DNA from: Deferribacterales bacterium
GTDB taxonomy: Bacteria > Chrysiogenota > Deferribacteres > Deferribacterales > Geovibrionaceae
Direction of reading: 5' to 3'
DNA length: 64,000 nucleotides
Assembly (NCBI GenBank): GCA_050253335.1
Contig: JBFWJG010000005.1
Location: 1,585-65,584 of the forward strand
The position numbers and the translations under genes were made by a program. A model generated the notes under the pieces. That model ran no database searches. It worked only from the letters and a program-made list of their open reading frames with translations, and was not told the DNA's origin. This document shows positions 24,301-26,779 of the stretch, one piece after another. Positions within the stretch are counted from its first letter, which is position 1. Every line of letters begins with the position of its first letter.

Positions 24301-25086
24301 ATGGATTCCGGAAAAACAAGGGAACAGCAGGAAAAGTTCTGGAACAGTAGATCTGAAACTTTTCCCCGCTATGAGGAAGGGGAAGACAGCTATGAAGCGG
24401 GAATGCTGAATGCCGCCCGCAGTCTCGGCGTTGTGTTTAAGGATGCGGAGGTTCTTGATGTGGGCTGCGGAAGCGGTATGTACACCATACGCCTCGCAAA
24501 AGAGGCGAAGCTTGTTACCGCAGTTGACATTTCGGGCGAAATGCTCCGCATACTCAGAGAAGATGCCGCCGCGCAGGGGCTGACCAATATAGACACGTAT
24601 CAGTGCGACTGGCCGGAGTTTAAATCTGACAGGAAGTTTGATGTGGTTTTCTGCTCCATGACACCCGCAGTGCAGTCTGACGAAGGGCGGGAGAAGCTTC
24701 TCCGCCATGCCGGAGGCTGGGTTGTCTACATGGGTTTTGCAGACCGCATTGATAAGGGGATGGCGGCAAAACTATATGAGCATTACGAAATAAAGCCCAA
24801 GCAGTTTCACGATGCACTGCTCATGCGTAAGTGGCTTGAGTCAAAGGGGCTGAGTTTCTCTTCATATTCTGCAAAGGGTGAGTGGGTTATACCAAGAACC
24901 CGTGACGAGGCGATGTCCATCTGCGGCGGCATCCTTAAAATGCATAATCTGGAGCCGGATGCGGATGTCATGGATATGTGCCTCCGTGAAAGCCTTGATG
25001 AGAACGGCAGATATACCGAACGTACGGAGTATAATATTGATATGATTGTATTCGATATGCGGACACAAAAAAAGGGAGCCTTTTAG
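24301..25086 (+). CDS. Class I SAM-dependent methyltransferase
   Basis: VLDVGCGSG, VDISGEML; the last 9 codons and the stop lie inside the terminator repeat. Confidence 0.9.
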   Translation: MDSGKTREQQEKFWNSRSETFPRYEEGEDSYEAGMLNAARSLGVVFKDAEVLDVGCGSGMYTIRLAKEAKLVTAVDISGEMLRILREDAAAQGLTNIDTYQCDWPEFKSDRKFDVVFCSMTPAVQSDEGREKLLRHAGGWVVYMGFADRIDKGMAAKLYEHYEIKPKQFHDALLMRKWLESKGLSFSSYSAKGEWVIPRTRDEAMSICGGILKMHNLEPDADVMDMCLRESLDENGRYTERTEYNIDMIVFDMRTQKKGAF

Positions 25087-25098
25087 GGGGCTCCCTTA
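25058..25098. repeat. Copy 1 of a ~41-bp direct repeat (terminator hairpin)
   Basis: TGCGGACACAAAAAAAGGGAGCCTTTTAGGGGGCTCCCTTA. Confidence 0.9.
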
Positions 25099-25103
25099 AC
25101 AGT

Positions 25104-26240
25104 TTAGTTTTTTATGGTTTTCACCAGCAAAACGGAGGCAGTAAAAAGCATTACCGCCTGCAGCAGAAGAATACTGCTGATAAGATCCGCAGATCTGAAT
25201 ACGCCTATTATGAAAGGTACGGTGAAATACCCTATGCCCCAGAACATGAAGTAAACTCCGGACGAGGCTCCGGCATGGGCAGAATCAGCGTTGAGCTGGA
25301 GATACAGCATTGAGGCTATGCTGAAAACACCAAGCCCTGCCGTAAAGATCAGCAACCCGCCGAAAAGCAGAATCCCGTCATTGCCGATGATTGTCAGCAA
25401 GCCTGCTCCCATGGAAAGCATTCCGATCGGGAGCGCCTGTCTGAGGTTGTGTGCCTTCACAATCCTCCCGGAAAAGATCTGGGTCATCCCCAGAGTAAAA
25501 AAGCTCAGAGAGAAAGCAGTGTTTGCAAGGCCGTGATCCATGTTTTTTACTGACAGCACAAATGCCGGAATAACACTGACAATCAGCCCGTATGATGCCC
25601 CGTACATAACTATACCAGCCAGAACGGATTTGTTGAGCGAGCCGATTATGTTCATCATACTGGTTTTGGTATCGCTTTTCCTGAGTGTGCGGTATTCAGG
25701 GGAAATCATTGTCAATACAATGAATCCTCCGATTACGGAGGCGGCGGAAAAACCCAGAAATGTTGACTGCGCTCCGAAGACGTCTGCGATATATGTTCCC
25801 GCCAGAGGGCCCGCAGTAAGCCCGAAATGGAAGGAGGCCGTGTACCAGCCCATTGCCTGTGCCTTATTCTCAGGGTAGAGCATTGCCAGCAGTACGGGTG
25901 AAAGCGACCAGAGCGGTGCTTCCCCTATCCCCTGAATAATTCTGCCGATGATCAGCCACTGTGCCGAGCCTGCCGAAAAATAGACAATGCCGGATACCCC
26001 GCACAGAAGAAACCCCGCTATGATGACAGGCCTGAAACCGAAACGATCTGCAGCCTTCCCGAGCGGATACTGGGAAAGGATGTAAGCCAGACCGAAGGCA
26101 GAGGCAAGAAAACCGCTCATGGCGGCGGAGCCTGACAGCTTTGTCATTTTATCCGGCAGATAGGTAAAGCAGATACCAAGTCCGAACATGATTATGAATA
26201 TACTGCTGTTGACAGCAGCCATATAACGTATTGATGACAT
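25104..26240 (-). CDS. MFS transporter (DHA1-like exporter)
   Basis: Motif A GKAADRFGFR, GRIIQGIG; about 12 TM segments; SD AAGGAG. Confidence 0.9.
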   Translation of the reverse strand: MSSIRYMAAVNSSIFIIMFGLGICFTYLPDKMTKLSGSAAMSGFLASAFGLAYILSQYPLGKAADRFGFRPVIIAGFLLCGVSGIVYFSAGSAQWLIIGRIIQGIGEAPLWSLSPVLLAMLYPENKAQAMGWYTASFHFGLTAGPLAGTYIADVFGAQSTFLGFSAASVIGGFIVLTMISPEYRTLRKSDTKTSMMNIIGSLNKSVLAGIVMYGASYGLIVSVIPAFVLSVKNMDHGLANTAFSLSFFTLGMTQIFSGRIVKAHNLRQALPIGMLSMGAGLLTIIGNDGILLFGGLLIFTAGLGVFSIASMLYLQLNADSAHAGASSGVYFMFWGIGYFTVPFIIGVFRSADLISSILLLQAVMLFTASVLLVKTIKN

Positions 26241-26334
26241 AAAAATAACTCCTTAGATAAGTGGACACAGTTTCAGGAGTACGCCTTGTATTGCGGTGTT
26301 GATTTAAAACGGACTCCGAATGCCGGTTAAAGAA

Positions 26335-26394
26335 TCAGGCAGTCGGAGGAGGAGGGGTAGTGCCGAAAAGTTTGTGGAAATCTGAAGCAGACAT
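26335..26394 (-). CDS. Putative leader peptide MSASDFHKLFGTTPPPPTA (19 aa)
   Basis: Manual translation; SD-like AGGGA 8 nt upstream; lies within the predicted 5' leader of the MFS gene. Confidence 0.55.
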   Translation of the reverse strand: MSASDFHKLFGTTPPPPTA

Positions 26395-26417
26395 TTTTAT
26401 TTCCCTGTTTTTTTGTG

Positions 26418-26446
26418 AGTATCGCCGTGCTCCCGTGCATTGTCAA
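26418..26446 (-). promoter_or_regulatory. Putative promoter of the MFS leader transcript
   Basis: TTGACA-N17-GATACT; implies a leader of about 170 nt. Confidence 0.55.
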
Positions 26447-26481: not shown

Positions 26482-26523
26482 TGCGGACACAAAAAAAGGG
26501 AGCCTTTTGAGGGGCTCCCTTTA
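26482..26523 (-). terminator. rpsR intrinsic terminator (copy 2 of the direct repeat)
   Basis: Minus strand AAGGGAGCC-CCTCAAAA-GGCTCCC-TTTTTTT, 25 nt after the rpsR stop. Confidence 0.85.
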
Positions 26524-26548: not shown

Positions 26549-26779
26549 TTATCTGTCGAGGCTGAAGGGAAGAAGGATGATGGTACGTGCGGTTTTAACA
26601 GCAGAGGCGAGTGCTCTCTGGTGTCTTGCGCATGTGCCTGTAAGCCTTCTGGGCATTATTTTACCTCTTTCGGTTACGAAACCTCTGAGGAGTTTAGCGT
26701 CTTTGTAGTCTATATCGATTTTTTCCGCGCAGAATCTGCACACTTTCTTTTTCTGAAATTTTCTTCTTAAAACAGCCAT
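26549..26779 (-). CDS. rpsR: 30S ribosomal protein S18 (zinc-binding type)
   Basis: [32 protein letters not shown]. Confidence 0.97.

Follow-up and report, generated by a model that had tools for sequence, protein, structure and literature searches.

The window analysed here, a stretch of 64,000 nucleotides, belongs to a Deferribacterales genome of 2.58 Mb with 49% G+C. On its minus strand, ssb is followed by rpsR and the rpsR terminator, then by a leader region and by a gene encoding an MFS transporter, which is closed by a terminator of its own (Table 1). Beyond this second terminator lie a convergent methyltransferase gene and a DUF2232 gene. The leader carries a promoter, a short upstream ORF (uORF) with a run of proline codons near its end, and RNA segments that can pair in alternative ways, one of them being the Shine-Dalgarno (SD) sequence of the MFS gene.

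Table 1. Features of the leader-MFS locus (positions in the window).
Feature	Position	Strand	Details
rpsR	26549-26779	-	
rpsR terminator	26495-26522	-	
Sigma-70-type promoter	26418-26446	-	TTGACA (26446-26441), N17, GATACT (26423-26418); 10/12 consensus matches
SD-like element of the uORF	26402-26406	-	AGGGA, 7 nt 5′ of the ATG
Leader uORF	26335-26394	-	MSASDFHKLFGTTPPPPTA*; 19 codons + TGA
Four consecutive Pro codons	26344-26355	-	CCT CCT CCT CCG; proposed pause site
Segment 1	26338-26348	-	CUCCGACUGCC; 5′ arm of hairpin 1:2; 10/11 paired, 3 compensatory pairs
Segment 2	26306-26324	-	26324-26314 pairs with segment 1; 26317-26306 (GGAGUCCGUUUU) alternatively pairs with segment 3
5′ arm of the constitutive middle hairpin	26306-26311	-	CGUUUU; within segment 2
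Segment 3	26275-26287	-	26287-26276 (AAGGCGUACUCC) pairs with segment 2; anti-SD ACUCCU (26280-26275) pairs with the MFS SD
Segment 4 (MFS SD)	26248-26253	-	AGGAGU; 8 nt from the GGAG core to the ATG
MFS transporter gene	25104-26240	-	378 aa, 12 TMS, DHA1-like; Pfam MFS_1, E = 2.6e-44
Intrinsic terminator after the MFS gene	25072-25097	-	Terminator scan; near copy of the rpsR terminator

Over its full length, the MFS protein is weakly similar to NorA and to pumps of the Tet(A) type. DHA1 transporters have motif C (GxxxGPxxG) in TM5 and motif A in the stretch that links TM2 to TM3. In the family of this protein, motif A (G61..D65-R..G68) and the antiporter motif C (G140xxxG144-P145) do not vary, and the protein combines them with the MFS_1 fold and the 12 TMS of DHA1 drug:H+ antiporters. 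Together with the NorA/Tet similarity, these motifs argue for a proton antiporter, that is a putative exporter rather than an importer. No substrate is predicted for it, all NCBIfam resistance models scoring far below their cut-offs on this protein. The closest relatives are found in Geovibrio ferrireducens (85% identity), in G. thiophilus (80%) and in a further genome (G001, 67%), followed by the metagenomic pairs L033/L036 (58%) and L034/L035 (54%). In searches of 5.8 billion proteins, the family has only seven members that reach at least 54% identity, and the next relatives do not exceed 36%. One of these distant relatives, L037 (36%), has no proline uORF upstream. Within the metagenomic pair L033/L036, L033 has an intact MFS gene (1695-2831) behind a leader with LPPP. 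In L036 (1695-2831) the leader has PPPP and the gene is split into ORFs of 56 and 319 aa, the larger of which is the family member P0007; this split gene may be a pseudogene or an assembly error.

The preliminary description of this DNA had proposed an ermC-like leader upstream of the transporter, and its individual elements were all recovered. The promoter, the AGGGA element and the uORF lie on the minus strand where they had been placed, with 23 nt between the end of the promoter and the uORF ATG; in a consensus scan this promoter is one of just two promoter-like sites within 2.3 kb. The pairing of segment 1, CTCCGACTGCC (26348-26338), with segment 2, GGCATTCGGAG (26324-26314), holds at 10 of 11 positions, and that of the anti-SD ACTCCT (26280-26275) with the MFS SD AGGAGT (26253-26248) at 6 of 6. 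The alternative pairing of GGAGTCCG with CGTACTCC was found as described (7/8) and the helix proved longer, extending to 12 positions, 11 of them paired, between GGAGUCCGUUUU (26317-26306) and AAGGCGUACUCC (26287-26276). The last two proline codons sit within the 5′ arm of helix 1:2, and the stop codon of the uORF, directly 3′ of segment 1, forms the 5′ end of the loop. Proline codon usage in this genome (CCT 26%, CCG 26%, CCC 44%, CCA 4%) gives no hint of a rare-codon effect.

We compared the leaders of four Geovibrio species, namely the window, L002, L003 and L004 (sequences G002, G003 and G001, respectively), and of two metagenomic lineages, L033/L036 and L034/L035. Conservation of the uORF upstream of MFS homologues had been suggested as a check, and the same layout indeed precedes every known close homologue (at least 54% identity). 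Promoter, SD, uORF, three hairpins and MFS SD are kept in seven distinct leaders. At all eight loci the short leader ORF with its SD is found, and the promoter consists of TTGACA, a spacer of 17-18 nt and an xAxAxT -10 element, 22-27 nt 5′ of the uORF start. In each lineage, the uORF ATG has a purine-rich SD-like element 5′ of it, and 94-108 nt separate the uORF from the MFS ATG. The uORF has 16-20 codons in all relatives and ends in (T/S)PPPP(T/A)(A/V/I)-stop, with LPPP in L033. The predicted leader peptides are MSASDFHKLFGTTPPPPTA in the window, MSASDFHKLFGLTPPPPAA in G002, MIASDFHDRFGLTPPPPAA in G003, MNLNHRFSLTPPPPTA in G001, MIEYLIPLCFIGCTLPPPTI in L033, MIEYLIPLCFIGCTPPPPTI in L036 and MNIFFKQINSTVSPPPPAV in L034/L035. 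Their N-terminal halves are unrelated among the three deep lineages; start, frame, SD and stop are preserved, and conservation of the peptide is confined to the polyproline run with the two codons and the stop after it.

The nature of the substitutions is informative as well. Changes in the threonine and proline codons are almost all synonymous (ACC/ACA/ACT, CCT/CCC, CCG/CCA), and the CCG to CCA change is compensated in helix 1:2. L033 and L036 differ at only four of 261 nt; one of these differences is CTT/CCT, which accounts for LPPP in L033 and PPPP in L036, and another is TAG to TAA, which preserves the uORF stop. These signatures suggest that the uORF is translated and that the only feature of the peptide under selection is the proline run with its distance to the stop. 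The last two proline codons are also constrained as RNA and the CCUCC repeats resemble an anti-SD, so selection at the peptide level and at the RNA level is not fully separable over this run. From the proline codons to the MFS ATG, identity between lineages amounts to 62-89%, while the synonymous third positions of the MFS gene reach only 28-66%; this contrast indicates that the leader RNA is under strong purifying selection. This comparison with relatives indicates that the layout of the leader is more than a product of chance.

The cassette formed by the leader and the MFS gene is found in four genomic contexts and the leader is kept in each of them. In the window, G002 and G003, the cassette follows rpsR. 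In G001 it is flanked by a DUF5677 gene and a Na+/H+ exchanger gene, whereas it lies between an AraC-type regulator and thiamine genes in L033, and between a dehydratase and a Crp-type regulator in L034. As the L034 dehydratase is 92% identical to its counterpart in another genus of the same family, the leader-MFS module is a patchy accessory cassette of Geovibrionaceae-like genomes. In the window, a 40-nt direct repeat that carries the rpsR terminator (25058-25097 and 26482-26521; 95% identical, 1424 bp apart) flanks exactly the leader and the MFS gene. This repeat suggests that the cassette was inserted behind rpsR with a duplication of the terminator.

The fold of the window leader taken alone is not better than that of shuffled sequences (z = -1.34); the support for the helices comes from the alignment. 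On the six-sequence alignment, 89% of helix 1:2 is paired, with double compensatory changes at three of the 11 pairs (G-C to A-U twice, C-G to U-A). Two of these changes, G-C to A-U and C-G to U-A, occur in L033, and the other G-C to A-U change, at the third position of the last proline codon, in L034. With just seven distinct leaders, four of them from one genus, this covariation rests on two divergent lineages. When the 3′ strand was moved by 1-3 columns, pairing dropped from 90% to 27-50% (helices 1:2 and 3:4 counted together). Helix 2:3 is 90% paired over its 12 positions versus 38-61% when slid, and its changes are one-sided only (U-A/U-G). As for helix 3:4, its CUCC:GGAG core is invariant in all relatives, as is CGUnCUCCUGA across all lineages.

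Unguided RNAalifold predictions gave three hairpins: 1:2, a middle hairpin CGUUUU:AAAACG, and a 3:4 hairpin that is bipartite in the relatives, being made of CUCCU:AGGAG and of an inner GAU:AUC helix. The latter would explain why the UGAGAUU and AUCAA blocks are invariant. The helix of the putative ON state corresponds to the middle hairpin lengthened outward by GGAG of segment 2 and CUCC of segment 3. Given this geometry, the switch would be a strand exchange among CUCC(1), GGAG(2), CUCC(3) and GGAG(4), the last being the SD. These predictions refine the preliminary description in that the 12-bp helix 2:3 grows from a constitutive hairpin and helix 3:4 has two parts. In the window itself, the inner helix is broken (26270-26272 versus 26256-26258), AAC replacing GAU as a result of two substitutions, at 26272 and 26270. 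The OFF state of the window is therefore predicted to be somewhat weaker than that of the relatives, and this species may express the pump more leakily.

Helix energies were computed as -10 to -15 kcal/mol for 1:2, -3 to -7 kcal/mol for outer 3:4 and about -10 to -11 kcal/mol for 2:3, the latter being weak in G001 (-3.6). In the absence of a ribosome, the most favourable OFF fold is 1-9 kcal/mol more stable than the most favourable fold containing helix 2:3; when 2:3 is formed and segment 1 is left free in these foldings, segment 1 tends to pair with the SD. To model a ribosome, we then masked all RNA as far as 15 nt 3′ of the first base in the P site; for six sequences, the ensemble cost of exposing GGAG was calculated at each P-site codon. 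The predicted cost is 4.9-8.4 kcal/mol without a ribosome. A ribosome on the N-terminal codons leaves it near this value in five of the six sequences, the window giving 3.0-4.9 kcal/mol. With the P site anywhere from the polyproline run through the last sense codon, it falls to 0.8-3.6 kcal/mol in all six, in agreement with the earlier proposal that a ribosome on these codons frees the MFS SD. The drop starts two codons before the proline run in most lineages, and at the third proline codon in the window and G002; overall, the modelled cost is lowered by about 3-5 kcal/mol only with the ribosome on the last 5-8 codons. With the third proline codon (26349) in the P site, coverage reaches about 26334 and includes all of segment 1 and the stop codon, and nothing of segment 2. 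Indeed, because the uORF stop lies in the 1:2 loop, a ribosome could never unwind segment 2. In the model, the arrest site is thus placed such that the ribosome masks segment 1 and spares segment 2.

Altogether, these observations lead us to propose, with a probability of about 0.7, that the leader is a translational attenuator that sets the translation of a DHA1-like MFS exporter according to the dwell time of the ribosome on the polyproline run. The cassette would be transcribed from its own promoter, the transcript starting about 15-20 nt 5′ of the uORF. As long as the 3′ end of the uORF is free of ribosomes, the three hairpins would form: the last two proline codons with the Thr/Ala and Ala codons would pair with GGCAUUCGGAG in 1:2, the middle hairpin CGUUUU:AAAACG would close, and CUCCU:AGGAG would bury the MFS SD in 3:4. 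A ribosome with its P site on the last 5-8 codons, including one that waits with Pro-Pro in its P site while Pro-tRNA occupies the A site, would cover segment 1. The freed GGAG of segment 2 would then capture CUCC of segment 3, turning the middle hairpin into the 12-bp helix 2:3, and the SD would become single-stranded and allow translation of the MFS gene. Termination, two codons after the prolines and within the 1:2 loop, would let the more stable OFF fold return. The output of the MFS gene would thereby scale with the pause at PPPP. The analysis bears directly on the sequence elements, their conservation, the covariation in helix 1:2 and the thermodynamic plausibility of the switch, whereas uORF translation and pausing, as well as the signal and what the pump transports, are inferred.

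Polyproline slows peptide-bond formation, EF-P relieves this effect, and such runs are sensitive to prolyl-tRNA supply. The pause would presumably be longer under a shortage of prolyl-tRNA(Pro) or of EF-P activity, or in the presence of a peptidyl-transferase-centre (PTC) inhibitor. EF-P is encoded in this genome, and with EF-P present PPPP may pause the ribosome only briefly. A leader peptide of at most 20 residues cannot leave the exit tunnel, so sensing would take place at the PTC, the A site or in the tunnel. The proC gene (TIGR00112; Pfam P5CR_dimer) was not detected in this assembly (99.9% complete, 142 contigs), which does contain proB, and is present in all 15 other genomes of the family; its absence reflects either an assembly gap or a real loss that would make the strain a proline auxotroph. 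We discarded proline auxotrophy as a rationale for the leader, since the other three leader-bearing Geovibrio genomes have proC and no correlation is seen.

The closest functional precedent is mgtP rather than mgtL, to which the preliminary description had referred. The leader of Salmonella mgtCBR contains the 17-codon ORF mgtP with three consecutive proline codons, responds to proline limitation, and has the last codons of mgtP in the left arm of a stem-loop; it adopts a fold C+D or a fold with E, D hiding the ribosome-binding site (Lee & Groisman 2012, PMC3641672). Like mgtP (and mgtL), the Geovibrio leader has a short ORF (16-20 versus 17 codons) with its own SD and at least three consecutive prolines near its 3′ end. 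As in mgtP, these last codons belong to the left arm of the switch helix, the RNA can adopt either of two folds and in one of them the downstream ribosome-binding site is hidden, and slow decoding of proline would operate the switch. The Geovibrio leader differs in its four prolines, after which come exactly two codons and then the stop. Furthermore, there is no sequence or phylogenetic relation between the two (Deferribacterota versus Enterobacteria): the region has no Rfam hit below E = 0.86, and the downstream gene is an MFS_1 gene, not mgtA or mgtCBR. While mgtP was described as a transcription attenuator in a long, multi-signal leader, the element reported here would be a compact, stand-alone translational switch with no terminator. 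The regulated gene differs as well, being neither mgtC nor a Mg2+ transporter gene; here a DHA1-like MFS exporter would be controlled.

The architecture is that of ermC/ermCL, and also of cat86, cmlA and fexA: 1:2 and 3:4 compete with 2:3, the SD is in segment 4, and an arrested ribosome would cover segment 1. This logic had been put forward in the preliminary description, and each of its elements is kept in all known relatives, with covariation in 1:2 and about 90% pairing in 2:3 and 3:4. As with cmlA and fexA, the gene under control would encode an MFS exporter. However, the ermC-type leaders are unrelated to it in peptide and RNA sequence, and their arrest depends on a drug and a peptide (IFVI, KNAD-K), while the Geovibrio leader has an intrinsic polyproline run and no known inducer. 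CutF/CruR-type leaders combine a proline-rich C-terminal motif near the stop with a stem-loop shielding the next SD; the CutF protein carries a Sec signal peptide as well as a copper site of the CxxxC type, is exported, and detects copper beyond the cytoplasm (Ozturk et al. 2023, PMC9973294). What the Geovibrio leader has in common with these leaders is limited to a proline run close to the stop and a shielded SD; its peptides of 16-20 residues have no sensor domain, no signal peptide and no CxxxC motif, unlike CutF (DUF2946), and would stay in the exit tunnel before the pause. In addition, CutF acts by direct unwinding of one stem-loop, whereas the Geovibrio leader would be a three-helix toggle. 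In sequence, the leader is unrelated to any of these systems. We regard it as an independently evolved example of a known control principle.

Other explanations deserve to be weighed. As a sub-variant of the polyproline attenuator, the leader could be drug-sensing: a long pause would require the binding of a ribosome-targeting compound, for instance a macrolide or a PTC binder resembling phenicols or oxazolidinones, and the MFS protein would then be a resistance pump, on the pattern of cmlA, fexA, cat and erm. The residue classes T, S and A define the context-specific arrest caused by chloramphenicol and linezolid, and T or S always precedes the proline run in the leader peptides, T or A always being the penultimate residue. 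Furthermore, the MFS phenicol exporters cmlA and fexA have leader-peptide translational attenuators, the gene downstream encodes a DHA1-like antiporter with motifs A and C, and a peptide too short to exit the tunnel implies sensing in the tunnel or at the PTC. Nevertheless, the peptides contain no known drug-arrest motif, the sole conserved motif being (T/S)PPPP(T/A)(A/V/I), and bear no resemblance to any known peptide whose arrest depends on a drug; helix 1:2 also constrains the T/A codon that follows the prolines (A-U/G-U, conserved mismatch, U-A), no substrate is predicted, and the NCBIfam resistance models all stay far under their cut-offs. We therefore hold this variant to be rather unlikely. 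A reading without any signal is that uORF translation opens the structure at a fixed rate, the prolines being a built-in delay; any regulation would occur at the promoter, and the leader would set a low basal level or couple the MFS gene to translation capacity. Helix 1:2 must, from its geometry, melt for every passing ribosome, EF-P may keep the pause short and constant, and inner 3:4 is already weakened in the window, all of which fits such a constitutive activation. Yet a four-segment toggle under strong purifying selection is hard to explain without a variable input, and so is a conserved run of the slowest-reacting amino acid at the very position where occupancy would flip the switch; in the mgtP precedent, such leaders respond to proline supply (PMC3641672). 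Constitutive activation hence seems quite improbable to us.

Two further alternatives were considered. If the uORF were incidental, the pyrimidine tract CCUCCUCCUCC and the hairpins could form a switch for a protein, an sRNA or a ligand, or a stability element. The CUCC/GGAG repeats do pair in several registers, free segment 1 can pair with the SD, and SD regions containing GGA are typical targets of CsrA. But ORF, SD and promoter distance are kept in three lineages with unrelated N-terminal codons, the stop is preserved through a TAG to TAA change, the threonine and proline codons change synonymously, and the RNA has no Rfam match, which makes an RNA-only element very improbable. Alternatively, hairpin 1:2 and UCCGUUUU could be an intrinsic terminator, prevented by a ribosome paused on the prolines, since a stable hairpin (-10 to -15 kcal/mol) is followed by the invariant CGUUUU. 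However, the U run has just 4 U and begins 4 nt past the stem, the terminator scan did not call it, CGUUUU is already explained as a strand of the middle and 2:3 helices, and the downstream anti-SD:SD helix would be left without a role. We rejected this candidate terminator on account of its short, displaced U run and the negative scan, and find transcription attenuation highly unlikely.

We also looked for further copies of the leader. The Rfam scan of the region gave noise only, the best E-value (0.86) falling on the neighbouring rpsR terminator, and literature searches found no published description, in keeping with the earlier view that the leader is undescribed. A covariance model of the leader (R1), run on 68 Deferribacterota species, matched a single copy in each of the four Geovibrio genomes and none elsewhere; as it matches once per genome, the leader is not reused before other genes. 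Genome-wide, 26 intergenic small ORFs contain PPP, and only this uORF pairs an SD with a C-terminal PPPP, so no regulon is apparent. A strict DNA pattern (hairpin 1:2 and CGTTTT) gave 0 matches in metagenome contigs. A looser pattern gave 69 matches in the same collection, all of which were dismissed as chance; most (within L038-L106) are one 95-98 nt sequence from about 58 human-gut assemblies (CTCCGGAAGGGGAGTGG...CGTACTCCTGA), unrelated to the leader and without a proline uORF. A protein-guided scan of genome contigs returned only G001, already known, and an unrelated Virgibacillus MFS. The leader-MFS family is very rare, being found only in Geovibrionaceae-like genomes, and this rarity limits the reach of our findings.

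A broader function can also be envisaged, which we consider unlikely: the leader may use the intrinsic weakness of the ribosome at polyproline to sense a broad range of natural inhibitors of prolyl-tRNA synthetase, EF-P or the PTC, the MFS protein being the cognate resistance pump of a self-contained, horizontally moving sensor-plus-pump cassette. If this were true, the attenuator would sense drugs without relying on an arrest peptide specific to any of them. Returning to the polyproline attenuator that we favour, its confirmation would establish an independently evolved polyproline leader switch outside Enterobacteria, a compact one of about 190 nt that is purely translational and serves an efflux pump instead of Mg2+ transport. 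The leader could then serve as a portable reporter, of natural origin, for EF-P activity and the supply of prolyl-tRNA. A sensor logic based on proline codons, as in mgtP, would have evolved repeatedly, and an MFS family that is otherwise uncharacterised would gain a regulatory input.
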